Origin: Mobula hypostoma
Lineage: Eukaryota
Direction of reading: 5' to 3'
Length of the DNA stretch: 64,000 nucleotides
Assembly: GCF_963921235.1 (NCBI RefSeq)
Contig: NC_086097.1
Coordinates: 88,352,001-88,416,000, forward strand
Notes under the pieces: model-generated
Database searches by the model: none
What the model was told of the DNA's origin: nothing
What the model saw: the letters and a program-made list of their open reading frames with translations, nothing else
Shown: positions 4,059 through 64,000 of the stretch, one piece after another
How the letters are laid out: the number at the start of each line of letters is the position of its first letter
Numbering within the stretch: the stretch's first letter is position 1
Position numbers and translations under genes: made by a program

Positions 4059-4660
4059 AATTATATTTTATTATGATGTAATAAACAATTAAATTGGTCA
4101 GCAATTTTATTCAATACTAAGTTAAATGCAGTAAATGTACCGTTTAATTTGGAAAGGGTGTTGGTGTGATTTCTATTATCGTTCCGTTCACAGTCTGACA
4201 GTACAATAACAGTAGGCCGGATATGCTGGGAAGTGACAACATTCTGTATACTACCATCATGATTCTTTTAAGTACCTGCATGTTCAGGATTTGCACACAA
4301 ATATAAATGTCCCAAACTTCCTGGAAAAACTCCAGTGGCACTTTTCTGAGAAAACTCTGCTTTTGGACTCTGCATGGAGACTGGGTTGCGAAGGTTAGTT
4401 GAGCTGCCATTGCAAATACTTAAGAGGACCTTCTGAGTACAAAAAGAGAATTTAGCAAGTACACCCGGCTAATTGAGAAAGGAAGGCTCTGCACACACTT
4501 GAAGGCATTGACCCTGAATGCCCTGTACCATGATGCTGGGCAAAGTAGTGATGAAGGGAAGTCAAACAACAGGAATTCTGCAGATGCTGGAAATTCAAGC
4601 AACACACATCAAAATTGCTGGTAAACGCAGCAGGCCAAGCAGCATCTATTGGAAGAGGCG

Positions 4661-4698
4661 CAGTCGACGTTTCAGGCCGAGACCCTTCGTCAGGACTA
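4661..4698 (-). ncRNA. Minimal type I hammerhead ribozyme (PLE-associated)
   Basis: Minus strand UAGUC-CUGACGA-AGG GUCUCGG CCU-GAAA-CGUC-GACUG: intact core, helix I UAGUC/GACUG, helix II AGG/CCU, palindromic ACGU helix III, GUC cleavage triplet. Confidence 0.8.
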
Positions 4699-5667
4699 AC
4701 TGAAGGAAGAGTGAGTAAGGGATTTGAAAGCTGGAGGGGGAGGGGGAGATGCAAAATGATAGGAGAAGACAGGAGGGGGAGGGATAGAGCCGAGAGCTGG
4801 ACAGGTGATAGGCAAAAGGGGATACGAGAGGATCATGGGACAGGAGGTCCGGGAAGAAAGACGGGGGGGGGGTGACCCAGAGGATGGGCAAGAGGTATAT
4901 TCAGAGGGACAGAGGGAGAAAAAGGAGAGTGAGAGAAAGAATGTGTGCATAAAAAAGAGTAACAGATGGGGTACGAGGGGGAGGTGGGGCCTAGCGGAAG
5001 TTAGAGAAGTCGATGTTCATGCCATCAGGTTGGAGGCTACCCAGACGGAATATAAGGTGTTGTTCCTCCAACCTGAGTGTGGCTTCATCTTTACAGTAGA
5101 GGAGGCCGTGGATAGACATGTCAGAATGGTGAGACCCGACGCAGACTAGGAGACCGCTTTGCTGAACATCTACGCTCTGTCCGCCAGAGAAAGCAGGATC
5201 TCCCAGTGGCCACACATTTTAATTCCACATCCCATTCCCATTCTGACATGTCTATCCATGGCCTCCTCCACTGTAAAGATGAAGCCACATCAGGTTGGAG
5301 GAACAACACCTTATATTCCGTCTGGGTAGCCTACAACCTGATGGCATGAACATCGACTTCTCTAACTTCCGCTAAGGCCCCACCTCCCCGTCGTACCCCA
5401 TCCGTTACTCATTTTTATGCACACATTCTTTCTCTCACTCTCCTTTTTCTCCCTCTGTCCCTCTGAATATACCTCTTGCCCATCCTCTGGGTCCCCCCCC
5501 CTTGTCTTTCTTCCCGGACCTCCTGTCCCATGATCCTCTCGTATCCCCTTTTGCCTATCACCTGTCCAGCTCTTGGCTCTGTCCCTCCCCCTCCTGTCTT
5601 CTCCTATCATTTTGGATCTCCCCTTCCCCCTCCAACTTTCAAATCCCTTACTCACTCTTCCTTCAGT

Positions 5668-5705
5668 TAGTCCTGACGAAGGGTCTCGGCCTGAAACGTC
5701 GACTG
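5668..5705 (+). ncRNA. Minimal type I hammerhead ribozyme (PLE-associated)
   Basis: tagtc CTGACGA agggtctcggcct GAAA cgtc gactg; predicted cleavage after C5700. Confidence 0.8.
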
Positions 5706-6414
5706 CACCTCTTCCTACAGATGCTGCTTCGCCTGCTGCGTTCACCAGCAACTTTGATGTGTGTTGCTCTAACTACAGTTTCTCTACATTAGTGAACATA
5801 TATGAAATATATATGTGAGGCTCATAATACAGGACTGGTAAGGCATTGTCAAAACCTGATCAATGTTACTTGGCATATGGGGGAAAGGAGTCAAAGTTGA
5901 TATCTCTTAAAACACTCCAAAACATTTTTCTTTGTAATTTAAAAAAAAATCACTAAAATCGTCCTGATAATCAGCAGAGCCTTTTTATCTTTGTAAACAA
6001 GATGGGCATGTGAAATATTGTTTTACATTAACATTCTTGAATTTATTAATAGGATGACACTTCAAAGAAATGTATTGATTTATCTGCATTGATAAATGCT
6101 AACTAGAGTTGCATTAATCTGTATACTCTTGTGAATTATATGTGACCACTGGGTTCTTAATCATAGATTTCCACACGGAGCTTAAGCTATCTGTGCTTTA
6201 TTTCAAAGCTCTCTAAGGATCTTTCATCAACTAGTCTTGCAACCCAGAGTGCATTTAGACAGCAGTTGAATAGTGGGGAGTCCCAGGGGCAAAAAGAGCA
6301 TATGGGATTAAAGGGGAAGGAGTGGACTAACTAAGAGTGGCTGAGGAAGGGGAGAGATGGGGACTGAGCAAGGGAGTTATGGAAAGGGCAGTTGAAGGAC
6401 GTGATCAGTGTGAG

Positions 6415-7700: not shown

Positions 7701-8999
7701 GTGATTTTGTGTTGGATTTCCTGGAAATGGGTGGTCATAATGTGTGTGCACTGTGCTAAGTTGGTGCTATGGAGACTGTTTTCAACTGCCTTGGGCCTTC
7801 TTATCATTAGAATAACACCTCATTTTGTGGAGCCTTCGTGGTAGATGGTGTGCAATGACTACCCTTCATTAAAAGAACCACACCTAAACACCTTCAGCAA
7901 AACAATTCATCCTTGATCCCAAAGAACACTATAAGGATGGTAGAGTTATATGACATGATCCTTAAAGCCACATATTTGTTTACTACGAACACCATATATG
8001 TGATAAATTCTCAACACTGTTTATAGCTTTAAGATTGCTGGTAATGAAAAATATAGTTATTTGACCTTCTTTATATTCAGGTACAGTTCTAGCTTTCACC
8101 CACTCATCAATCGAGACTTGCAGTTTTCACCCAAATACAGTAGTTATGTTGAACTTAGGTTCACTGTGAGGTCTGGATCTGAGGACAGATTACACAGCTG
8201 ATACATGGATGCAGCAGTTTCCAGCCATCGCTTCCTGACGTTTCTTACTTTACATGCAGCCTATCATTTCACCAAGAATGACAGTGCAGACTAGCTGCAG
8301 TCTTGAGTCCTGTTGGTATGCAAAACATATCCCACAGATAGCCGTGACCAGCAATAAGATGTGCAGCATTCCTCTGCTTCATAGCAGTTCAGGTTTTGCC
8401 TCATTGAGAGAAAAGCCAGCTTAGATTATTTTTCAGAAATCAGCCAGTTAAAAACCCCACTACAAACGTTAGAGCCTTTCTTTATTGAAGCGGAACATTT
8501 CAAACTGGTAGTAGCATGGGAATGGATGAGAGTTGCTGACCCATCTTCACTTTGCCAGCATTTTTGGGCCCTGCCAGGATTTAATGCAGATATCTGACAG
8601 AATTAGGCAGGCATTCAAAATAAATTTATCATCAAAGTATGTATATATCACCAAATACTGCCCTGTGATTCATCTGCTTGCAGGCATTCACCTAGAACAA
8701 AGGAGTACAATACAGTAGATTCAGTGAAAAACTACAAGTCTGAACTGTTACCATTCTGAGATGCATCTTCCAACTGCACCTCATCTCACCGAGATGCAGA
8801 ATATACAGTACATTGTGTTTGTGTAGCATCTTTAATGTCATAAGCTGTTCTAAGGTACTTCGAAAGTGCATTATTATCCAGGCATTAAGAAAATATTGAG
8901 ACAAATAGCCTTACTTGAGATGTAGATTTTAAGCAGTGCCTTAAAGCAGTAGAGAAAGGTAGAGTATCACAGGGGTTCAAAGAAGTGATTCTGGTAAAT

Positions 9000-9425
9000 A
9001 AGCAACACACATCAAAGTTGCTGGTGAACGCAGCAGGCCAATCAGCATCTATAGGAAGAGGCGCAGTCGACGTTTCAGGCCGAGACCCTTCGTCAGGACT
9101 AACTGAAGGAAGAGTGAGTAAGGGATTTGAAAGCTGGAGGGGGAGGGGGAGATGCAAAATGATAGGAGAAGACAGGAGGGGGAGGGATAGAGCCGAGAGC
9201 TGGACAGGTGATAGGCAAAAGGGGATACGAGAGGATCATGGGACAGGAGGTCCGGGAAGAAAGACGGGGGGGGGGTGACCCAGAGGATGGGCAAGAGGTA
9301 TATTCAGAGGGACAGAGGGAGAAAAAGGAGAGTGAGAGAAAGAATGTGTGCATAAAAAAGAGTAACAGATGGGGTACGAGGGGGAGGTGGGGCCTAGCGG
9401 AAGTTAGAGAAGTCAATGTTCATGC
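9000..9425 (-). mobile_element. Penelope-like element 3' fragment (single arm)
   Basis: Near-identical to 4597-5022 (I count 5 substitutions); includes the ORF end MNIDFSNFR* and a hammerhead. Confidence 0.9.
9064..9101 (-). ncRNA. Minimal type I hammerhead ribozyme (PLE-associated)
   Basis: Same sequence as 4661-4698. Confidence 0.8.
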
Positions 9426-9532
9426 ATGTGATTGTGGTGGAAGCAGACATCTGATTCCAGGGATTCAAACACAGAATCCATAGGTCACCAAGAACTTTGA
9501 CAAACTTCCATAGACGTACGACAGAGAGTATC

Positions 9533-9625
9533 CCTGGTGAGGGTTCTTGATCCAAAAGTCGACTCTCCATTTCCCTCTGTGGATGCTACCTGAACTGCTG
9601 AGTTCCTGCAGTACTTTTTTTTTGT
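9533..9625 (+). mobile_element. Old, decayed PLE terminal fragment with eroded hammerhead
   Basis: ctggtgagggttcttgatccaaaagtcgact...gatgctacctgaactgctgagttcctgcag aligns loosely with the young hammerhead and downstream hairpin; the core is mutated. Confidence 0.55.
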
Positions 9626-9653
9626 TTTACTGTAAATGCGAGGAAATGATTTT

Positions 9654-19600: not shown

Positions 19601-20850
19601 ATCGTAAGCCTCTGCTTGCTAGCCATCTCACAACACATTGCCTCTGTTTGTAAACCAACTCCCTCATCCTCATCACTATTATTCCAGTTCCTATCCCCCT
19701 GCCAAATTAATTTAAGCCCTCCTGAACAGCTCCAGCATACATGCCCACAAGAATATTGCACTTCCTCGGGTTCAGGTGTAACCCATCTCCTTTGTATAGG
19801 TCATACCTTCTCCAGAAGAGATCCCAATGATCCACAAACCTGAACGCCTGCCTCCTGCATCAGTTCCTCTGCCACGCATTCACCTGCCAAATCATCCTAT
19901 TCTTGCCCTCGCTGACGTAGGCATGGGCAGCAATTCAGAGATTACTATCCTGGGAGATCCTGTTTTTCAGCTTTCTACCTAGCTCCAGAAAATCTCACTT
20001 CAGGACCTTTCTTCCTATGTCACTGGTGCCAACATTTACTAAGACTTCTGGTGCTCACCGTTCCACTTTAGAATGCCATGGACCCGATCGAGTCATCCCT
20101 GACCTTTGCACCTGGGAGGCAACATACTCTGTGGGTTTCTCTATTGCACCCACAGAATCTCATTTGTGTTCCTCTGACTATGGAATTTCCTTTCACCATT
20201 GCATTCCTCATCACCTCTCTTCTCTTCTGAGCCACAGCACCAGACTCAGTGCCAGTGACCCAGTCACTGTGGCACCCCCCAGTAGGTCATTCCCCTCAAC
20301 AGTATCCAAAGTGGTATTCTTATTAAGAGGGGAATGGCCACAGGGATCCCTTTCCTTCTGACCGTTATCTAGCCCCTGCATCCTGGGCGTGACTACCTAC
20401 CAGTAGCTCCTAACTATCACCTACTCGTTCTCCCATAAGACCTGAAGGTCATCGAGCTGCAGCTCCAGTTCCTCAGGTTCTCTGAGGAACTGCAGCTCGG
20501 TGCACCTGGTGAGGCGTGGTTATCCGGGAGGCTGGATGTCTCCCAGAATTCCCATATATCATAAACAGAACAAAGCACTGCCCTTGGAGCCTGTCTCACT
20601 GCACTAATTGTGCCATAACAGATGAAGAATGAAGAATAAAAAAAGAAAAAGAAACTTGCTCGATACTTACCTCACCCAAGCCTGATGAGCCAAAGCCACT
20701 TCCACACCGGCCCACTCACAACAATGGCCATTCCACTTGCGCCTACCTTATTTTTATTCGCCCTTTCTGATGAATCCCACGCAGTGATTAGTCACAGTCC
20801 AATTTCAAAAAACTACTGCGAAGTGTTGCCTTTTCAATCTTGAGTGCGAA
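16691..20850 (-). mobile_element. Near full-length degenerate CR1 LINE
   Basis: Minus strand: tail at ~16691, RT (KFADDTK), endonuclease, esterase ORF1 remnant (~19700-20350), N-terminal zinc-finger remnant (CSVYDIWE, 20417-20599). 5' boundary uncertain. Confidence 0.9.
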
Positions 20851-20965
20851 CCTCAGTGAAAAGGTAGCTAACAACAGGAATTCTGCAGATGCTGGAAATT
20901 CAAGCAACATACATCAAAGTTGCTGGTGAACGCAGCAGGCCAGGCAGCATCTCTAGGAAGAGGTA

Positions 20966-21003
20966 CAGTCGATGTTTCAGGCCGAGACCCTTCGTCAGGA
21001 CTA
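20966..21003 (-). ncRNA. Hammerhead ribozyme variant (AUC triplet, helix III palindrome broken)
   Basis: Minus strand UAGUC CUGACGA ... GAAA CAUC GACUG; CpG-type G>A change. Confidence 0.65.
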
Positions 21004-21589
21004 ACTGAAGGAAAAGTTAGTAAGAGATTTGAAAGTGGGAGGGGGAGGGGGAGATCCAAAATGATAGGAGAAGACAGAAGGGGGAAGGATGGAGCCAAGA
21101 GCTGGACAGGTGATTGGCAAAGGGGATATGAGAGGGTCAAGGGACAGGAGGTCCGGGGAGAAAGACAAGGTGGGGGGGGGAGCCCAGAGGATGGGCAAGG
21201 GGTATAGTCAGAGGGACAGAGGGAGAAAAAGGAGAGTGAGAGAAAGAATGTGTGTATAAAAATAAATAACAGATGGGGTACGAAGGGGAAGTGGGGCATT
21301 AGCGGAAGTTAGAGAAGTCAATGTTCATTATTTATTTTTATACACACATTCTTTCTCACTCTCCTTTTTCTCCCTCTGCCCCTCTGACTATACCCCTTGC
21401 CTATCCTCTGGGTTCCCCCCCCCCTTGTCTTTCTCCCTGGGCCTCCTGTCCCATGATCCTCTCATATCCCCTTAGACAATCACCTGTCCAGCTCTTGGCT
21501 CCATCCCTCCCCCTCCTGTCTCCTCCTATCATTTTGGATCTCCCCCTCCCCCTCCCACTTTCAAATCTCTTACTAACTCTCCCTTCAGT

Positions 21590-21627
21590 TAGTCCTGACG
21601 AAGGGTCTCGGCCTGAAACGTCGACTG
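21590..21627 (+). ncRNA. Minimal type I hammerhead ribozyme (PLE-associated)
   Basis: tagtc CTGACGA agggtctcggcct GAAA cgtc gactg; predicted cleavage after C21622. Confidence 0.8.
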
Positions 21628-22794
21628 TACCTCTTCCTAGAGATGCTGCCTGGCCTGCTTCGTTCGCCAGCAACTTTGAAAAGGTAGCTCTTTTTTTAAA
21701 AGAAGACTGGGAAAGCAAATAATTTAATTCCAAAATAAATAAAAATCCAGCTAAAGGAAAAAATGTTTGCATCAACAACAGAGGAAGATGGAGACAGCTG
21801 CTCTGCCTGCTGAGATGAATAAGACAAACTCTTATTTCAAGGTCTGTCCTGTCTGAAATCTGCTAATTGGAATTAGTTTATTGTCACATTTACTGAGATG
21901 CACTGAAAAGCTTGTTCTGCAAACTGTTCATACGGATCAATTCATTATGCAGTGCATTGAGGTTGAACAAGGTTAAACAATAACAATGCTGAATGAAGTG
22001 TAACAGCTACTGAGAAAGTGCTGTGCAGGTAAGCAATAAGGTGCAAGATCATTACAAAGACCCTGTAAGGTCAATAGTCCTTCAGCAAGAAAAATGGAAT
22101 GGCTAATGGTCAGATGAGAGTTGACCCCAGTGGATGGGAATGTGAGGGAGATGAGTAGAACCATACTGATGCCCATTCTAGAGTTTAGCACCAATGACCA
22201 AGTACTATTTTTCCACAGTTTCGCTTCACAGGAGCAATATCCAAGAACTTTAATGGAGTGAGGTTGGAGGTAAATTGAGAGTGACAGTTACACAAATATC
22301 AGACCCAGAGACAGAGTAGAAATGTTTGGCAGAGCAGCTTGAGTTACACAATCAAGACCACACTCAATGAATGAGCAAATATAAAGCTAAACTCCAGCAG
22401 ATTAGGAAAATTATAAAAAGCACCAATTGTTGCAAAGGCAGCTATAAGTGGTGCAAAAGAGAAATATGAAACAATTTTTCAGGAGATTTAGCATTATTAT
22501 TAAAAGATTCTATAAATATAAAATAACAAAGAAGATGGAGGGGACAGAGACTGTTACAGCTGAATACAAGAGAGAATTTCATGGGTAATAAGGAATTGAC
22601 AATTTGTTAAATTAGCATTTGCATCAGTCTTCATAGTTAGAGGAGTACAAAATGCCTGAAAATAAATGGAGAAAATAGAGTTGGTATAATTTTGAATATG
22701 GTAGTGGAGAAAAAAATGGCATTTCATCCCTGATGAACACAGACCCTTTGCATTTGCATCCTAGCTTTAATAGAAATAGAGGATGGAAAGGCAA

Positions 22795-28435: not shown

Positions 28436-29967
28436 AGTGCATGATATACTGTGTCATTTTGGTTGATATATTTGTGGAGCTTTATCTTTAGTTGTATTTG
28501 GGAATGTTAATTTTTCATTCTGCATTCTAATACACATCATGTTTCCTGAATACAATTTATATTTGTATTAATGGGATACATAATATAAATGGGATATCCC
28601 CGACAGGGAAAGCATTTATTCTTGATCCTACGCTGCCCTTTAGATGGATTGGAACTTAAACAAAGAAAATCCATCTTAATGGTAAATTTGAAGCATGAAA
28701 CTGATGCGTGAAAGAGAAGAGAGCTCCTAATTACTGTATTGCTTTGAACAATCTCAGTTTATGCAATTCCACAGGGTCTGATTGTAAACTAGAAGTAATT
28801 GCTAGGTGCTGATTTAGTAGATGCAATGCGGTTGAACCAGAGACATTTTGTTGGATGGTATTCATTCCTTTGAGAAAGCATCTGTTACCAATTTTTCTGG
28901 GAAGTCAGCAAAGCTGGGTTTAAAAATAGAACTATAGCATATATGCAAGATGTGTATATAGGATTATTTTCTTTTTATGAAAATGTATATCCCTTTGGAT
29001 ACTGCTGGGGGGGGGGCACAGTCTGTAGGTGACCTATCAGGCCACGGCAGCAGCAGCCAGGGCACAGGCAGCGTGGCTGGTTGAGCCTGAGATTCAGCAG
29101 GGAAGGGTATAGTGAGGCAGAGTGTTAGTGATAGGAGACTCAATAGTTGGGGGGGAAGAGAGGTCATTCTGTGGTGCGAAAGAGGCACCAGTATGATATG
29201 TTACCTCCCAGGTGCTGGGGTCCAGGATGTCTCAGAGTGGCTGTGGAAGATTGTCAAGATGGAGGGTGAATCCTCAGTTACAGGAAAGATACCAGAGGAT
29301 TGGAGAATAGCCAAAGTTGTTCTGCTCTTTAAGAAAGGCTCCAAAAAATAAACTCGGAAATTATAGGCTGGTGAGCCTGACATCAACAGTAGGAAAGTTA
29401 TTGGAAGGTATTCTAAAGGACTGGCTATATGAGTATTTGGACAGACACTTATTGATTAAGGATAAATCAGCATGGCTTCAAGTGGGGTTGGTCAAATCTA
29501 ACATATCTTAAGAGTTTTTTGAGGAAGTTACCAGGAAAGTCGATAAAAGCAAGGCAGTGGATTACACATCGGCTTTGTGGGGGAAGCCAGAGAGTGGCAG
29601 TAGATGGTTGGCTCTCTGACTGGTGGCCTGTGACTGGTGGAATGCTCTGGGGATTGGTGCTGGGTCCATTGTTGTTTGTCATCTATATTAATTACCTGGA
29701 TGTTAATGTGGTTAACTGGAAATTGGAAAACAGCATTGGACAGCGAGGAAGGCTATCATGGCTTGCAGCAGAGTTTGGACCAGCTAGAAAAATGGACTGA
29801 AAAAATGGCAGACAGACTGTAATGCAGACAAGTATGAAGTGTTGTACTTCAGTAGGACCTATCAGGGTAGGTCTTGCACAGTGAACTGTAGAGCATTGAG
29901 GAGTGTAGTAGAACACAGGGATCTGGGAATGTAGGTCCATAGTTAATTAAAAGTGGCATCACAGGTA

Positions 29968-30706
29968 AACAAGAGGAAATCTGCAGATGCTGGAATTTCA
30001 AGCAACACACATAAAAGTTGCTGGTGAACACAGCAGGCCAGGCAGCATCTCTAGGAAGAGGTACAGTCGATGTTTCGGGCCGAGACCCTTCGTCAGGACT
30101 AACTGAAAGAAGAGCTAGTAAGAGATTTGAAAGTGGGAGGGGGAGGGATGGAGCCAAGAGCTGGACAGTTGATTGGCAAAAGGGATATGAGAGGATCATG
30201 GGACAGGAGGCCTAGGGAGAAAGAAAAGGGGGAGGGGGGGAAAAAGCCCAGAGGATGGGCAAGGGGTATAGTGAGAGGGACAGAGAGAGAAAAAAGAGAG
30301 AGAGAAAAAGAATGTGTGTATATAAATCAATAACGGATGGGGTACGAGGGGGAGGTGGGGCATTAGTGGAAGTTTGAGAAGTCAATGTTCATGCCATCAG
30401 GTTGGAGGCTACCCAGACGGAATATAAGGTGTTGTTCCTCCAACCTGAGTGTGGCTTCATCTTTACAGTAGAGGAGGCCGTGGATAGACATATCAGAATG
30501 GGAATGGGACGTGGAATTAAAATATGTGGCCACTGGGAGATCCTGCTTTCTCTGGCGGACAGAGCATAGGTGTTCCGCGAAACGATCTCCCAGTCTGCGT
30601 CAGGTCTCGCCAATATATAGAAGGCCACTTTGGGAGCACCGGATGCAGTCTATCACCCCAGCTGACTCACGGGTGAAGTGTCGCCTCACCTGGAAGGACT
30701 GTCTGG
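29968..30706 (-). mobile_element. Penelope-like element 3' fragment with GIY-YIG endonuclease, nested in CR1
   Basis: Minus strand reads ...HFTRESAGVIDCIRCSQSGLLYIGET*RRLGDRFAEHL... (GIY-YIG). GGTA at 29964-29967 and 30707-30710; CR1 resumes after it. Confidence 0.9.
30064..30101 (-). ncRNA. Hammerhead ribozyme variant (AUC triplet)
   Basis: Minus strand UAGUC CUGACGA AGGGUCUCGGCCC GAAA CAUC GACUG. Confidence 0.65.
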
Positions 30707-30959
30707 GGTAGATTGGGTCGTAAAAAAAGCTTTTGGCATTTTGGCCTTCATAATCAAAGTATTGAGTACTAAATTTGGGATATTATGTTGAAGTTGTATA
30801 AGATATTGGTGAGGCCTAATTTGGAGTATTATGTGCTGTTTTGGCCATCTACCTACAGAAAAGATGGAAGTAAGGTTGAAAGAGTACAGGGAATATTTAC
30901 AAGAAAATTGCCGAGTGTGGAGGAACTGAGTAATAAGGAACGATTGATTAAGTTAGCCC

Positions 30960-40482: not shown

Positions 40483-42099
40483 AATCCATAATGTAATGGA
40501 GCTTTAGTAACAGAACAGACCAGGTGTCATGAGAAACTGAGGTTGCGGAATCTTTTTGGTCTTGCCAAAGTTGAAGTTTCAGGAGAGATGTGGGTAGTAA
40601 TTCCTGGCTATTCTGTAAGGAAATAAGAAAAATTGACAAACTGCTTTTTCAGATGAGTGAGATTGAAGATCTCTCTGTAGTTGACCTTTTTACCTTGTTC
40701 ACTGTTGATGACTCTTAGAGAGTTTTGCAGCAGAAAGAGAGTTGAGAATTAAATCAGAATGAAAGTGAGTTTCAGAAGCAGAGTTCAACACCCAACAAAT
40801 TTAGAGGAGGCTTTTTTGGGTGCTGAAGGTGCTGGAAATCATAAGGAATTTGCTGTATTCCTGATTAATTTGTTTTCAATAGCACAGCAGCATTTTTGAG
40901 TTGTATGAATTAATTTCCAGCTTGGGGAATTTGGATCATGTGGCGATGGGGTAACAGTGAGTATAAGAGTCTGCATGTCTACACCAGGTTGCTGTGGTCT
41001 TGGAAAGGAATCTGCAGATGGTTACAGTGGTGTTTCAATGTTCTTGCTGCTTTGTCATTCTTTGTGGCAAAGGTCATTGGTTTACGAATAGCCTAGATGA
41101 ATAATTGCAGTGTATTTTGCAAATGGTCCATATTGTGATCAAGGTTTATTAGGGTTGGAGTAACTGAATAGTTATGGTGGTGGAATTGGTAGTGATCAAA
41201 ACTTAATTAGGCATCTTTTAAATATCAATCAGTTGATCTATCAAAACTAATAATGCCATAAATTGGTCAATGAATTAAAATCACTGATTTTTTTGATTAG
41301 ACACATTTTTCAGGAGTGATAATTAGACTGTGTCAGGTCATGACTTTTAACCATCAATTAATGTATTTCATTGCAAGAATAATATGTAATTCTTTCATTC
41401 TACTTGTAGATGATGACCCCTCCTGTCAGACTGTTATTAACCTCTGCTTACCAGAGCTCTGTTAAGCTCTGTTTAAGCTCACACCCCACTATTGCACGCA
41501 TCCTGTACAATACTACCATCATTTCTTATCTGGAAGGTGTGAATGTGCACTATTACTGTATTAACTGTAATTCTTGCACAGCCATCTTAGTGTGAACTTG
41601 TAAATCTTGAAAATCTTGTGATCTTTGACTTGTAAATCTTATACATTTTGTTTTTTATTTTTCTTCTAATATTTGTATATATTTGCACTCATAATGCTAC
41701 TGTGGGATCAATAAAGTATCTATCTATCTAGAGGATTACATGTTTGTGATAATCTAGGTAAGTCTAATGGATCTCTAATTCATTTGGTTTTCATTTCGAT
41801 GCACATGTTTACAATACTGCAGAAAATTTTAACCCAGTAGCCTTGAAGATGGTTTTTAAAACGCTGTCTTTTAGTAACATAGCAATTATCTGGGGAAATG
41901 GGATTGAAGGGAATGACATGAGGGCTGATGTGAACACAATTATATGAATGGTCTGCTTCTATATTGTCAGAAAATATGAGAAATGTGGAAATACAGATGT
42001 ACTGCACTGAATCAAATATAAAACTGATCCCTGCAATCTTTACCGAGGACTAAAATAGTTATTTAACTGAGCTATTGTTGGTTTGTAGTGCTAATTAAA

Positions 42100-43198: not shown

Positions 43199-44497
43199 AA
43201 GTACAAAATCCTGAAAGTGCATACCACCAGACTAAAGGACAGGTACTCTCACTCTGTTATAAGACCATTGAAGGGTGCCCATGTACTATAAAATGAACTC
43301 TTGACCTTACAATCTGCCTCATTGTGGCCTTGCAACTTACTGTCTGACTGCACTGCTGCTTTCTCTGTTAATATACCACTCAATTCTGCATTCTCTATGG
43401 CTTTCTGTTATATTATCTCACTGCACCATTATAATGAAATGATCTATATGGATGGCATGCAAAGTGTTTGACTGTACCTTCATACGTGTGCCAGTTTACC
43501 AATTTGCCAGCCAGTGGCACAGAGGGTATGATTAGATAGTCAACTGTACTTGCAGGGACATACTACAATCATAAGCCACAGCTGGGGAGCGCAGAATCTG
43601 AAGGAATGAATTGTGTGATGGCTGCACAGGGATGGAAGATTAATCTCAGGCAGTCATATGGACCTGACCAGCCTGGTGAAGACCTGTGCTCAGAGCAGGT
43701 TTGTCCTCCTTGCTCTGGAGTCATTGAGACTCTCCACAGCCCCAGCTGGGCACATCTGGCAAGAAGTTGCCTGGAAGGTCTCTGAGTGAAGAGTGCAGTT
43801 GTGTGGCCTGTAGTGTAATCAAATTGCTGTGCCTGCTCTTCCTGTCTCTGTGGCTGAAGGTAAAGTGGATGAATTCTCCTTGATTAGCAGTGAGCCCCAG
43901 CAACCTGTAATGATCTTATTCTCAGTCACAGGGTGAGATATACAGTACTGAATCTGCAGCCCCTACAATCAGCGATCAGCACCAATCCTACATTAATCTC
44001 ATTTAATGTAGCTCTAGGATTATTCCTATTGTAAATTTATATGTGAATCCATAATGTAGTGCAGTTCTACGAGCAAAATAGACCAGGTGTCATGAAAGAC
44101 GGTGAGGTTGCAGAATCTCGTTGGTCTTGCCGAAGACAAAGTTTCAGGTGAAATGTGGGTGGTAATACCTGGGAAAAAAAGGAAATAAGAAAAATGAAAA
44201 ACTGATCTTTCAGATGAGTGAGATTGAAAATCTCTCTGTAGTTGAACTTTTTACTTTGTATCACTGTTGATGACATTTAGGAGAGTTTTGCAGCAGAAAA
44301 GGAGTTGGGAATTACATCAGAATGGAAATGAGTTTCAGAAGCAAAGTTCAACACCCAGCAGATTTAGAGGAGGCTTTCCTGGGTGCTGAAGGTGCAAGAA
44401 ATCATGAGGAATTTGCTGTATTTCTAGTTAATTTATTTTCAATAGCACAGCAGCATTTTTGTTCAGAAAGTTAGATTAAAAAATCTTTCTTTAGTTG

Positions 44498-44658
44498 AAG
44501 CAACACACACTATAAATGCTGGTGAGCGCAGAAGGGTCTCGGCCCGAAACGTCAACTTTACCTCTTCTTATAGATGCTGCCTGGCCTGCTGCGTTCACCA
44601 GCATTTTTTGTGTGTGTTGCTTGAATTTCCAGCATCTGCAGATTTCCTCGTGTTTGCG
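44498..44658. mobile_element. Miniature inverted PLE remnant (~34-bp minus arm plus ~128-bp plus arm)
   Basis: aagcaacacac...gctggtgagcgcag is the reverse complement of 44589-44622. The plus arm starts inside the hammerhead (gaagggtctcggcccgaaacgtc). Flanked by TAGTTGAA on both sides. Confidence 0.85.
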
Positions 44659-45611
44659 TCTCTGTAGTTGAATTTTTTTTCCTTGTGTTGCTGTTGATGT
44701 TATTTAGGACAGTTTTGCAGCTGAAAGAGCTGAGAATCAAATCAGATTGGAAATGAGTTTCAGAAGCAAAGTTAGATGAAGCTTTTTTTTGGGTGCTAAA
44801 GGTCCTAGAAATTGTGTATGACTTGCATGTATTTTTGGTTAATTTGTTTTCAATAGCACAGCAGCATTTTTGTTTGAGACGTATGAATGAATTTCTAGCT
44901 TAGAGAATTTGGATCATTCGATGATGGAGTAACAGTGAGTGTAAGAGTCTAGATGTCTGCATCAGGATGCTGTGGTCTTGGAAAGGAACCTGCAGACTGT
45001 GATGGTGGTGTTTCCATGCTCCTGATTTGTCATTCTTTGTGGGAAAGGGTCATTGGTTTCGGGATAGCCTGAGCATTAGTTACTTAATTGAGCTATTGTT
45101 AGTTCGTAGTGCTAATTAAGAAGCAGGCAAGATAGATGAAGGAGAGTCAGTGGATGTTGTTTACTTGGATTTTCAGAAGGCCTTTGACAAGGTGTCACAC
45201 ATGAGATTTCTTAACAGAATAAGAGTCCATGGTATTACAGAAAAGATACTAGAATGGATAGAAAATTGGCTGACTGGCAAGAGGCAAAGTGTGGAAATAT
45301 AGGGGGCCTTCTCCGGTTGGCTGCTGCGGTGTTTGGTGTTGGGACCACTTCTTTTCACATCATATGTGAATGATTTGGATGATGGGATTCTGGCCCAGTT
45401 TGCAGGCAATACAAAGATATGTGGAGGGACAAGTAGCATTGAAGAAACTGGGAGTCTACTGAAGGACTTGGACAAGTTGGGAGAATGGGTAAAGGAATAA
45501 CTGATGAAATATTGTGTAGGGAAGTGTATGGTCATGTTCTTTGGTGGAAGGAATAAGCGATTTTCTAAATGTCTATGAAGGTTCTGAATTATTCAGGTCA
45601 TTATATATCCT

Positions 45612-53149: not shown

Positions 53150-56100
53150 GCAGTACAGTTATATTTATTATTGCTCTGTAACTGTACCGGTTACTTCCAG
53201 TGTGATGCTGTGTACATACATCTATTGATGCTTCTGGACACATCTTCAGTGATGTTCCTGGAATCATCGGGTGTTTCAAGTCTTTCAACATCATACAACC
53301 TCCTCCAAGTGACCCAGCCGGGGCTGATCAGACCCCAGCTTTTGTCCAGATGGCTAGCTACTTATGACTCCATGGCTCCCCTCTTTTGAGCCACTGCCAT
53401 CTTGAGGCCCTCTCTGCCGCATCGGTGGTACTGCGGATGGCTCTCCTCTTCCTCTCTCCCTCAATGCCCAAAACGCTGAAGGCTCTAACTAAAGAGCGGG
53501 CTACAAATCCTCTACAACCAACCTCCACTGGGAGACACCTCGCTCTCCATCCAGCCTGCTGACAGTTGCTGACCAGTCCTGCATACTTGGAGAGCTTCCT
53601 TTCAAAGGCCTCTTCCAAGCTATCTTCCCATGGGACTGTCAGCTCCAGCAGCACCACTTGCTTAGTAGACTCAGACACTAGGACAATGTCTGGTCGCAGG
53701 GTGGTGGCTGCGATATGGTTGGGGAACTTCAGCTGCCCTTCGAGGTCCACCAACAGCTGTCAGTCCCTTGCAGAGGTCAGAATGCCTGCAGATGTTCTTT
53801 TGGCAGGTATTGGCTGCTCCCCAGCTCTGACAAAGGCAATGGTCTGCTTGGAGGGTCGGGACCGCTTCGCCCACTGAACTCCTGCGCTGACGGCTTCAGC
53901 GATGGTCTTCAGGACCCGATCATGCCTCCACCTGTACCGTCCCTCGCCAAGTGCCCTTGCACAGCCGCTGAGGATGTGCTCCAGGGTTCCTCGCTTGGAG
54001 CACAGTGGGCATGCAGATGACTCTGCCTTGCCCCATGTGTGCAGGTTCGATGGGCTTGGAAGCACATCGTACACTGCCTGGATGAGAAATTGGATACGGT
54101 GTGGTTCGGCTTTCCAAAGATCAGCCCAGGTCACTTTCCTCTCAACCGCATTCTCCCATCTTGTCCAAGCTCCCTGTTGCTTCATTCCCAACGCCTTGCA
54201 GGCTCTCATCTCCTCCACTACTGTTCTCACCTCCTCCTGAACTAGACGACGCCTTTCCTTCCCTCTGGTGTCCATTTGGGGAGTTGGAGAGGATCCTAGC
54301 CCAGCTCGGCCTCGTGTGACCACTCCCACCAACCTCCTGTGACGCAGCCTCGCCTCTGCCTCCTGAACAGCTTCCTCTGCCCTCCACTTCCTGCCAGTAC
54401 TTACTTGGATCCCTGCTCTCGCCACCTTCGGGTCACTTGAGTCCCTATACTGTAGCACTTCTCTGGCTCTTGTTACCTTGAATTCTTCCTCCAAGGATTT
54501 GAAGGGCAGTTGCAGTTTGTTGTGGTGTCCATAGAATGCGATGCTGCTCAGGCTCTTTGGCAGCCCCAGCCATCTCCTGAGGTGGTTGCTAACCCTCCTC
54601 TCTAAGGTTTCGACTGTCGAGATCAGAACTGCGTAGACGAGGAGGGGCCACAGGATTCTGGGAAGAATGCCATGCTGATACACCCAGGCTTTAAACTTCC
54701 CAGGTAGGCCAGACATGTCCACAGATTTCAGCCAGCCATCCAACTCGGTGCAGGTTGCCTGAATGGATGTTGTGTCCCTTAAAGAGCTGTCAAAAACCTT
54801 GCCTAAGCTCTTGACTGGTTTTTCTGTGATGGTTGGGATGGCTGTGCCTGCGATGCTGAACTGGAACTTGTTCTCCACCTTCCCTTTCCTCAGCACCATC
54901 GATCTTGATTTGGCAGGTTTGAAACACATCCGGGCCCACTCCACCAGCTTTTCGAGCCCCTGCAGAATCCACCGGCAGCCTGGGACTGATTCTGTGGTGA
55001 CTGTGAGGTCATCCATGAATGCCCTGATAGGTGGTTGCCGTTGAGCAGAATTCATTCTGGGCCCTCTGCACTCTGGTTCAGCAGACTTAGTGAGCATGTT
55101 CATGGCTAGGGAGAACAGTGTCACTGAGATAGTGCACCCTGTGATGATGCCGATCTCCACCTTGTGCCAGGTTGATGCAATTGCTGCTGAAGAGACCCTC
55201 ATCCTGAAGTTGCTGTAATAATCAGCGATAAGGTCTCTGATTCTGCTGCGGACGTGATACTTGGTCAGTGTGAGCTGCACCAGCTTGTGCGGAATGGAGC
55301 CATATGCATTTGCCAGGTCGAGCCACAACACTGACAGGTCGTCCTTGTTTTCTCTGGCCTCCCTGATGAGCTGTGTCACCACACCGATGTGCTCCAGACA
55401 GCCCGGCATCCCTGAAATGCCACCCTTCTGGACTGATGTATCAATATAGGTGTTCTTTGCTAGGTAGGTGCACAGCCGGTTAGAAACGGCACTGAAGAAG
55501 ATCTTCGCCTCGACACACAGCAGGGAGATGATGGGAAACTGATCTATCTGGGTGGCATTTTCCTCCATCGGGATCCACACCCCTTCAGCCGCTCTCCACT
55601 GTTCTGGGATCTCCAGAAGATTCTCAGGATCTTCCACAGACGCAGCAGGAGTTTGGGACAGTTCTTGTACATTTTGTACGAGGTGTTGCTTGGTCCTGGA
55701 GCCGAGCTTGCCCTTGCTTTGCAGATGACCTCTCTGACTTCCTTTAGTTGCAGCTCTGACATGTCGAACTGCACATCCGGTTCAGGTGGGTCTATTAGGA
55801 TGTCGCACTCTCCCAACTCCTGCTCTCTTTCAGGATCATTATATATCTTCTTCAGATGTTGGTCTATGTCTTCCTGTGAACAGGCCAGTTTCCCACTGCG
55901 CTTCTCCCCCAGCAACTCCTTGGTGAACTTGAACACCCCTCCCTTTGCTGTTGCCTCCAGAATTTGGTTAACATCTTCATCAAACTGCTTCCACAGTGAA
56001 GTCATGTTAGCTGCAGACCATTTGATCTGCCTCCTGCTAGACTTCATGTTAGAGGGATTAGTTTGCAACACTTGGAGGTTCCAGGCACTATGGGGTGACT

Positions 56101-61441: not shown

Positions 61442-63655
61442 TCAATGTTGAAACATTTTTGCTAATAACTCTAAAACAGCAGGAATGGATTTCTCAGGAT
61501 TAGAAATATATAAAAGTAAATCATCAGCATAGAGTGATAATTTATGGGACTTTAATCCCCGAGTTATCCCAGTAATATTTGAAGATTCTCGAATGGCAAT
61601 TGCAAGAGGTTCTAATGCAATATCAAATAATAGGGGACTAAGAGGACAGCCTTGTCGAGTACCTCGAAAAAGAGGAAAAAAAGGTGAGTTTAAAGAGTTA
61701 GTACGGACCGAGGCTACAGGGGAATGATATAACAGTTTAATCCAGGATATAAATTTCAAGCTAAAATTAAACATTTCAAACACCTTAAATAAATAAGGCC
61801 ATTCTACTCTATCAAAAGCTTTCTCGGCATCTAAAGAAATAACACACTCAGGAACATTTTGTGAGGGAGTATAAACGATATTTAACAATGTACGAATATT
61901 ATAAAAAGAGTAACGACCTTTAATAAAACCCGTTTGGTCTTCCGAAATAATAGAAGGAAGTACTTTTTCTAGTCTATTTGCTAATAACTTAGAAAAAACT
62001 TTAGAATCAACATTTAATAGAGATATTGGTCTATAAGATGCACATTGAGCAGGGTCTTTATCCTTCTTTAGTATTAAAGAAATTGACGCTCTATTAAAAG
62101 ATTCAGGAAGTTTACCAAGTTTCAGAGAAGCCTCAAAAACCCTACAGAGCCAAGGGATCAATAAAGAAGCAAAACATTTATAAAATCCAACGGTAAACCC
62201 ATCCGGGCCAGGAGCTTTCCCCAAATTCATAGAAAGAATAACATTCTTAATCTGATCCATAGTAATGGAAGTATCTAATATAGAAGACATATCCTGTGAA
62301 ATCTGAGGGAAGTCTAAATTATCTAAAAAATCATTCATATATTTAGAATCTCGAGGAGACTCTGATTGATATAAAGAAGAATAAAAATCACAAAACGTTT
62401 GATTAATCCCCACATGATCCAGTATCAATCGATCATTTTGGTTATAAATCTGATTGATTTGAGATTTAACATAATTAGATTTCAATTGATTAGCCAGCAG
62501 CTTGCCAATTTTGTCACTGTGAACATAAAATTCACTTCTTGTTTTCTTTAATTGGTTTACAATCGAGGACGAGAGTAGTAAACTGTGTTCCATTTGAAGT
62601 TCAGTTCTTTGTTTGTATAACTCCTCAGAAGGAGCCATAACATATTTCTTATCAATTTCTTTAATCTTGTCCACAATTACCATCTCCTCCTGCTTCTGCT
62701 TCTTCCTCAAAGCAGCAGAATACGAGATAATCTGACCACGAATATAGGCTTTAAAAGTGTCCCAAAGAGTGTTAACCGAAATATCCTCTGTATGGTTAAT
62801 TGTAAAAAAAAGCTCAATCTGTTCATTCATAAAGTTAACAAAGTCCGAGTCCTGAAGCAACAGCGAATTAAAACGCCATTGTCTATTATTTTGTATATTG
62901 GCCATAATTTTAATAGAAAGCTTAAGTGGAGCATGATCTGAAATGGTTATAGAATCATAATCACATTTAATCACTGAAGGAATAAGACGAGAATCAATAA
63001 AAAAGTAATCAATTCTTGAATAGGAATGATGAACATGTGAAAAGAAAGAAAAATCTTTTTCCTGAGGATGCAGAAAACGCCAAATGTCCGTCGACCCAGA
63101 ATCAGAAAGGAAAGAGTTAATCAAAGTTGCAGATTTATTAGGTAAGGTCCGTAAAGGAGCCGAACGGTCCAAAGCTGGAGACAAACAGGTATTAAGATCT
63201 CCGCCCCAGATCAATGAAAACTCGTTCAAATTCGGAAACTGATTAAATAATGATTTATAAAATTCCGGACAATCCATATTAGGAGCATAAACATTAACCA
63301 AAACTACTTTTTTATTAAATAGTAAACCACTAACCAATAAAAATCTACCATTCGGATCAGAAAAAATATCCTGTTGTATAAAAGTAACTGAGGAATCTAT
63401 AAAAATAGAGACGCCTCGAATCTTAGCATTGGAGTTCGAATGAAATTGTTGTTCCTTCCAGAATTTAAAAAAACGTAGTCTGTCCCCCCTCCGTACATGG
63501 GTCTCTTGTAAAAATAAAATTTGTGCTTTAAGTCTCCGGAACACTTTAAAAACTTTTTTCCTTTTAATAGGATGATTAAGACCGTTAGTATTCCAGGTTC
63601 TACAACTAAGTTCAATTTTTATATGTGTTTCAGGCATTACCAATTTTTGTTCCAA
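61442..63655 (-). pseudogene. L1 ORF2 endonuclease and RT segment (737-aa open frame; termini are junction-derived)
   Basis: Stop-free from WNTNGL to just after YADD; truncated by the inversion. Confidence 0.9.
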
Positions 63656-64000
63656 AATCTTTCTTTGATAAAGTTGACTCTAAAATTTCTTCATTTATTT
63701 GGCAGAATAAAAATCCGAGACTGGGTAAAATATATTTACAGAAAGCTAAGAGAGATGGAGGTTTAGCATTACCTAACTTTAGATTCTATTATTGGGCAAT
63801 TAATATTTGACATATGAAATTTTGGTTACTTGACCAGGATATACTATTTATTCCTAAATGGGTAGCATTGGAACTACAATCTGTTCAGGGCTATACACTT
63901 GGTTCTATTTTAGGTTCCTCTCTCCCTTTTGATTCGAAACGCCTTAAGCAGGTGTCTAACCCGATAGTTAAATATGCTTTGCGTATTTGGTTTCAATTCA
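61458..64000. mobile_element. Young L1 LINE with 5' inversion (minus arm ~61458-63597, plus arm ~63615 to beyond the window)
   Basis: Minus ORF: APE endonuclease (WNTNGL, LQETH, GDLN, YSRIDYFF, SDH) and RT (YRPISLLN, GTRQGCPLSP, YADD). Plus arm continues downstream ORF2 (FQALPIFVP…GGLALPNFRFYYWA). Confidence 0.93.

Follow-up and report, generated by a model that had tools for sequence, protein, structure and literature searches.

The window, that is, the whole 64-kb stretch of DNA analysed here, contains at 20857-21689 two inverted arms of a Penelope-like element (PLE) enclosed by a single target-site duplication (TSD) of 13 bp. The arms face outward, head to head, and both are short and non-coding except for the final codons of the element. 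The features of the locus are as follows:

20857..20869, + strand: left copy of the TSD, 13 bp (sequence and random-pair test)
20870..21328, - strand: long (tailed) arm, a 5'-truncated PLE 3' end of 459 nt (sequence and arm alignment)
20870..20902, - strand: 'tail' of 33 nt, missing in short arms; agrees with the optional extension of 30-40 nt described in PMC3846280 and PMC8557442
20903..20924, - strand: small hairpin with a 6-bp stem (AGCAAC/GUUGCU) and a 10-nt loop (minimum-free-energy structure)
20966..21003, - strand: hammerhead motif (minimal, type I) in the long arm (inspection against the description in PMC4209133)
21270..21327, no strand: unpaired centre of 58 nt, the part of the long arm beyond the 5' reach of the short arm (arm alignment)
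21299..21328, - strand: last 9 codons (MNIDFSNFR) and stop of the RT/GIY-YIG frame, as in the translation of the 30-kb copy and in P0002/P0003
21328..21328, no strand: arm-to-arm junction, 1-nt overlap (T) (sequence)
21328..21679, + strand: short (tail-less) arm, about 350 nt, the final 3 nt (TGA) common to the TSD (sequence and alignment)
21590..21627, + strand: hammerhead motif (minimal, type I) in the short arm, with both its core and its ACGT palindrome intact (sequence, fold and PMC4209133)
21677..21689, + strand: right copy of the TSD, 13 bp (sequence)

The 64-kb window has exactly two copies of the TSD word, TGAAAAGGTAGCT (20857-20869 and 21677-21689). With the locus excluded, an exact flanking duplication of at least 10 nt was found at none of 3999 random position pairs with the spacing of this TSD; a run with the locus included gave one 13-mer per 3000 random pairs, probably the site itself. 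The arms are 94.1% identical over 356 columns (20914-21269 versus 21328-21679). This overlap is the whole of the short arm, beyond which the long arm extends 58-59 nt further 5' and 44-47 nt further 3'. The outer end of the long arm (20870) has no homology to the target, and the short arm is bounded by 21328/9 and 21676, or 21679 if the TGA, which can be read as either element or target, is assigned to the element. The junction between the arms lies in AT-rich sequence and is not a perfect palindrome.

The first-pass annotation had described a 13-bp TSD around two outward-facing inverted PLE arms, and every feature that it named is present in the sequence, including a right arm ending some 45 nt short (measured, 44-47 nt) and overlapping the first bases of the TSD, with which it has TGA in common. 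Its extension of the left arm to the full terminus holds only approximately: the four tailed copies of the window have ends no more than about 5 nt apart, and the end of the pooled family in organism B, as a consensus of loose contig ends, lies approximately 4-5 nt beyond 20870.

The hairpin is that of the minimum-free-energy structure only, the z-scores of the whole segment not being significant. Judged from sequence, a hammerhead motif is present in the PLE terminal repeat of both arms. As in the minimal hammerheads of metazoan PLEs (PMC4209133) it has a type-I core, a short helix II and a palindromic, minimal helix III, and it lies within the terminal repeat; there is no notable difference from the hammerheads described there, and the left copy is decayed, its palindromic helix III being disrupted by a CpG-type change at 20973 (ACGT to ACAT). 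Rfam gave no hammerhead match among six matches at E≤1, and its miRNA and snoRNA matches at 21198-21396, scoring far under the gathering thresholds, were rejected as a palindrome effect. A pattern for the hammerhead region found no loci in viral contigs and none in metagenome contigs. Hammerhead cleavage as the process which sets the arm ends was ruled out, since no arm starts or stops at the cleavage site.

The element and its other copies in the window

The type of the element was read from the solo copy at 29967-30710, whose translation (30360-30710) gives the end of a GIY-YIG endonuclease, interrupted by a single in-frame stop. The last 78 residues of this copy, used as a query, returned 12 proteins among 60 candidates; the best match (P0001, 95% identity) is labelled Mobula hypostoma and most of the others are labelled rays or skates, so that the host is probably a ray. 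The 78-residue piece itself had no Pfam match, and P0001 matched the Pfam GIY-YIG family at E 4.6e-4 with 20.9 bits, slightly below the cut-off of 22.6. The element has the C-terminal GIY-YIG endonuclease which, with a CCHH motif, marks the endonuclease-bearing (EN+) PLEs. An RT upstream of the endonuclease is absent from the window, in which every copy is truncated; the homologues P0001 and P0003 carry a YIDD motif upstream of the endonuclease, and P0009 matches RVT_1 below cut-off. In P0001-P0003 the endonuclease is C-terminal and there is a C-x4-C-x2-C linker, in a part of the protein lying outside the window copies. The Neptune and Nematis types share a CX2-5CxxC zinc-finger linker between the RT and the C-terminal endonuclease (PMC8557442), and by these linker and endonuclease criteria, the linker being read in homologues only, we classify the element as an endonuclease-bearing PLE of the Neptune or Nematis type. 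The insertion traits of EN+ PLEs, namely 5' truncation, an adjoining inverted copy, a one-sided tail of 30-40 nt, a TSD of variable length and the lack of poly(A), are found among the three pairs and two solo copies of the window.

A profile search with the 3' module gave nine clear matches in the 64-kb window, two more at E>0.8 being set aside. These comprise six arms in three pairs, two solos and one old relic; those outside the pair described above are:

4563..5768, both strands: the 4565 pair, with tailed arm 4563-5129 (-), tail-less arm 5127-5768 (+) and a 3-nt junction overlap (alignment)
8999..9425, - strand: solo copy whose end coincides with the short end or lies as much as about 10 nt past it, with a degenerate TSD (alignment)
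9532-9645, + strand: old and decayed copy of the PLE 3' module in which a hammerhead remnant can still be recognised, just behind the 8999 solo (profile match, E 1.8e-6)
29967..30710, - strand: solo tailed copy with the longest GIY-YIG piece and one in-frame stop (translation)
44486..44672, both strands: the 44.5-kb pair, with a tail-less arm of approximately 32 nt at 44500-44531 (-) and tailed arm 44531-44658 (+) (sequence)

The tail is one-sided in all three pairs, for which the chance is 1 in 8 under two equally likely end states. The tail-less arms at 5768 and 44499 stop at the 3' foot of the hairpin, 32-33 nt before the terminus, and the short arm at 21679 stops in the hairpin loop, 11-14 nt before this short end of the other two pairs. 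The same asymmetry of a long and a short arm had been reported for all three pairs in the first-pass annotation: it stands insofar as just one arm of each carries the tail, but the short ends of the other two lie at 32-33 nt and not at about 45. The asymmetry is the published PLE tail, which had been missed. Likewise, the picture of two hammerhead-bearing arms within one TSD applies to the pair at 20857-21689 but not to the others, the 4565 pair having no TSD and the 44.5-kb pair an imperfect one and a short arm that lacks the hammerhead.

No TSD was found at the flanks of the 4565 pair, whose flank words have only chance-like 8-10-mer matches elsewhere, and its tail-less arm extends about 110 nt further 5' than the tailed one. 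The TSD of the 44.5-kb pair is of 12-14 bp (11/12 or 12/14 matches) and its arms overlap by 1 nt at their junction. Paralogous host repeats at 44222 and 40660 contain its target word once and serve as an in-window stand-in for the empty site. The host repeat, of approximately 260 nt, forms a tandem doublet at 44222-44880 with a paralogue at 40660-40900, and the PLE pair lies where the second unit of the doublet begins.

The 8999 solo is 98.6% identical to the arm at 4563; as direct copies 4.4 kb apart (4563-5020 and 8999-9425) the two differ at 6 of 427 columns, a closeness that suggests a young subfamily or gene conversion. The left flank of the solo (8984-9003) resembles the first 10-13 nt of the tail and has 2/13 mismatches to the right TSD copy (9426-9438), as would be expected had the target end paired with the tail. 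Because of this resemblance of its flank to the start of the tail, the copy was not taken as evidence that solos can start at the short end. It and the long arm of the pair at 20857-21689, about 9% apart, are 5'-truncated within 2 nt of each other (9423-9425 and 21328), approximately 30 nt before the stop codon; the common point may mark the start of an RNA or a site at which the polymerase stops (n=2).

Other apparent retroelements also lie in the window. Stop-free frames of 673 and 745 residues at 53760-55781 (-) and 61442-63679 (-) look by eye like non-LTR retrotransposon proteins (RT, and endonuclease plus RT), and there are many shorter RT-like fragments at 1.4-3.6, 9.6-11.9 and 38-39 kb.

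Formation of the inverted pair

The two arms at 20857-21689 differ at 17 of 352 columns, as against 25-39 differences over 313-455 columns when compared with four long copies, and they carry 7 and 10 private changes. On these counts we place them in one subfamily and at a similar age, and because of them the pair is very probably the product of a single insertion event, as the first-pass annotation had held. The exact TSD and the clean 1-nt junction speak for the same, as do the single-copy target words of the 44.5-kb pair.

Its layout is a known one. Direct and inverted terminal repeats within one TSD, with an optional 31-bp tail on one inverted repeat, are given as the typical Penelope structure in PMC3846280, where head-to-head is the commonest orientation and self-priming on an antisense template is proposed. 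According to PMC8557442 an inverted 5'-truncated copy adjoins, and the 30-40-bp tail is often confined to one end, which may be either; PMC8969392 teaches the same insertion features to annotators. Pen2a_Av and Pen2_Av of Adineta vaga (PMC3846280) and the elements of PMC8557442 (Fig. 2) similarly have head-to-head repeats in one TSD (9-10 bp there, 13 here), a one-ended tail (31 or 30-40 nt; 33 here) and an adjoining 5'-truncated inverted copy. They differ from the present pair in that its arms are both short and nearly non-coding, a 58-nt unpaired centre takes the place of a perfect junction palindrome, and the short arm stops 11-14 nt short of where the tail boundary usually lies. The locus is, then, a real, correctly described and ordinary PLE insertion structure, one more instance of a known layout.

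Biochemical data come from the anole. In vitro, the Poseidon protein PAc of Anolis carolinensis, a predicted dimer, cuts both strands and extends them, and it initiates at two neighbouring internal sites, the interval between which is the genomic tail (PMC11167929). These start sites lie in or beside a stem-loop and initiation occurs without homology to the target, as at the outer end of our long arm. PAc differs in belonging to another clade, Poseidon, and in lacking the zinc-finger linker, and the short arm described here has 3 nt of possible homology.

From the TSD, arm geometry, junction and family observed at the locus we infer the cut geometry, the priming and the order of the steps set out below. 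The preferred mechanism, and the probable one, is reverse transcription primed from both target ends. The endonuclease would cut the strands 13 nt apart, leaving 3' overhangs and a 3'-OH at the inner end of each TSD copy, and each 3'-OH would prime reverse transcription on sense RNA. The top-strand end would begin at the distal site, the end of the tail, with no homology; the bottom-strand end would begin near the proximal site, drawn 11-14 nt upstream into the hairpin loop where its last three bases could pair with UGA. Both cDNAs would end early (459 and about 350 nt) and be joined head to head through a 1-nt overlap, followed by fill-in. If a single RNA served for both, the starts would be 33-47 nt apart and the rear polymerase would displace the front cDNA, giving fully overlapping arms with exactly one tail. 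To our knowledge no RNase H domain has been described in the PLE frame. Each arm, on its own strand, reads as a cDNA of sense RNA continuing from the 3' end of the TSD, a geometry that fits, but does not prove, synthesis of both arms on RNA.

The first-pass annotation had the same two primers, each on a separate copy of the 3' region. Priming at both target ends is matched by the exact geometry and agrees with the anole protein in vitro (PMC11167929), the priming itself being inferred; the microhomology invoked for the short arm is visible as the TGA overlap, which is expected equally if the cDNA folded back on itself (see below). Separate template copies for the two strands are not required, for a single RNA on which priming takes place twice, at neighbouring sites and with strand displacement, yields an identical product. 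We consider one RNA region and separate copies (tandem repeats within an RNA, or two RNAs) about equally probable at this locus. One RNA primed twice is the better explanation of the one-sided tail, as two independent RNAs need an extra rule. Among the 21 columns at which the arms differ, 17 are private and four have both states in other copies, two of the four being CpG-type with conflicting directions. Four of 17 substitutions fall at recurring sites, for which P(≥4 of 17) is 0.04-0.15 under assumed match rates. In the pooled family of organism B, at the seven sites shown, the letter of the left arm is rare (≤7%) at five and reaches roughly 15-30% at two. In the 4565 pair, at eight of 22 differing columns, the tailed arm sides with the 8999 solo and the other arm with more distant copies; three of these eight lineage-marking sites are CpG-type and two adjoin a C run (one is both), which leaves four clean. 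Private changes in its arms number 10 and 2. Either each arm of this pair had a template of its own, or later homogenisation affected the tailed arm and the solo, which lie 4.4 kb apart.

An alternative that we regard as rather unlikely, if worth serious attention, is that the left target end alone primed and its cDNA, halted at 21328, formed a loop of 58 nt, was extended on itself back towards its start and passed to the other target end at the TGA microhomology. The short arm does lie wholly inside the span of the tailed arm both here and in the 44.5-kb pair, 17 of the 21 differing columns are private, and self-priming, on an antisense template, is already in the literature (PMC3846280). Such a fold-back would be expected just as much to leave the overlaps seen at the three junctions (1, 3 and 1 nt) and at the TGA, and the short arm here ends off the usual short site, at a 3-nt match to the target, as a chance exit would give. 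On the other hand, just 1 nt of pairing is available at the turn, and the fixed stop of two of the three short arms, matching the in vitro RT start site, is left unexplained. We prefer priming from both ends because that stop is a single fixed site of the kind at which reverse transcription starts in vitro, because the tail may sit on either arm (PMC8557442), and because fold-back cannot have produced the 4565 pair, its tail-less arm being the longer at the 5' side while the other is tailed, and the arms differing at the eight lineage-marking sites. Published cases with the tail at either end are equally impossible by fold-back. Against this, the 4565 pair, the sole one that excludes fold-back, has no TSD and may reflect two events or gene conversion.

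Sequential insertion, in which one arm came first and a second copy later entered its 5' end, has some footing: PLEs can target their own repeats, the anole protein nicks AT-rich DNA including its own repeat (PMC11167929), and the junction here is AT-rich. The 4565 pair, with no TSD, 10 versus 2 private changes and arms of different lineages, may be such a case. For the pair at 20857-21689 we think it very improbable: a second insertion should duplicate sequence at the junction rather than use the outer 13-mer of the first, the arms are of one subfamily and similar age, and a single TSD around inverted repeats recurs in the literature, an empty allele being known for one rotifer insertion (PMC3846280). 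Least credible of all is that an inverted pair already existing at a source locus was retrotransposed as a single read-through transcript. PLEs do carry neighbouring sequence and act in trans (PMC3846280), and the 5% divergence of the arms could mean an older source, but the junction has no second copy in the window, the three pairs have three different junctions, and the outer ends of the two arms are at or close to start sites of the element, unlike the 5' truncation of a read-through.

The twin-priming model of L1 reportedly dates from 2001. It shares with priming of a PLE from both ends the use of both nicks, a second primer acting through microhomology, joining of the cDNAs by microcomplementarity and a single TSD; the second L1 primer lies far inside the RNA, whereas the starts here would be 33-47 nt apart and there is no poly(A). 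The locus accordingly has one 13-bp TSD, inverted arms and microhomologies (3-nt and 1-nt overlaps), but its arms, with a 356-column overlap, do not cover largely different parts of the RNA. The contrast with non-overlapping L1 arms drawn in the first-pass annotation is right in that L1 overlaps are small, but it is one of degree: internal duplications, of median 22 bp, occur in 283 of 1,703 twin-primed inverted insertions (17%) of one tumour cohort, and are explained by one cDNA passing the start of the other on the same RNA (bioRxiv 10.1101/2024.08.27.596794).

The locus fits, without proving, priming from both cut ends, which is a reasonable proposal; one decayed locus cannot settle this mechanism. 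The origin of tandem and inverted PLE insertions is still listed as open in PMC8557442, and the main text of the 2024 in vitro work (PMC11167929) does not discuss inverted pairs. No statement of a both-ends model for inverted PLE pairs was found in full-text searches, a scope outside which the main subscription reviews of PLE structure lie, and a term search of the main text of bioRxiv 10.64898/2026.07.22.740005 gave nothing relevant. If true, such priming would join the in vitro results on two strands and two start sites with inverted insertions, and would imply that PLEs, like L1, can also bridge distant breaks. A wider proposal, which we offer tentatively and hold to be possible rather than probable, would account for the long-unexplained inverted PLE insertions by an RT-endonuclease dimer that primes from the two ends of a staggered cut, begins at the element's pair of neighbouring start sites and, in some cases at least, reads two different RNA molecules. 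A single mechanism would then underlie the TSD, the inversion and the one-sidedness of the tail.

Sequencing runs of organisms A and B

A search of sequencing runs with the left flank listed 11 runs: four from organism A (one sample, shares 0.38-0.45), four from the related organism B (one sample, 0.12-0.19) and three at 0.00. The four organism B runs were aligned to 19900-21345, a segment confined to the left flank and the left arm. This is a very abundant family: 54,967-128,245 contigs per run aligned to the segment, nearly all of them on the repeat. An apparently orthologous piece of the flank (20669-20811, 4 differences in 143) was among the matches listed in three of the four runs. Among the listed contigs of organism B, which are swamped by the repeat, there was no empty or single-arm allele and none bridged 20869/20870 informatively. 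A joint from 20775 to 20870, in one contig per run, was set aside as its short side has only 20-21 letters. The short end was absent among 24 loose ends listed for organism B out of a longer list. Many loose ends also lie at 21001-21002. In run X5 of organism B two joints, 21002 to 20892 and 21002 to 20929, connect the beginning of the hammerhead module back to where the module ends, which suggests tandem hammerhead units of about 75-110 nt.
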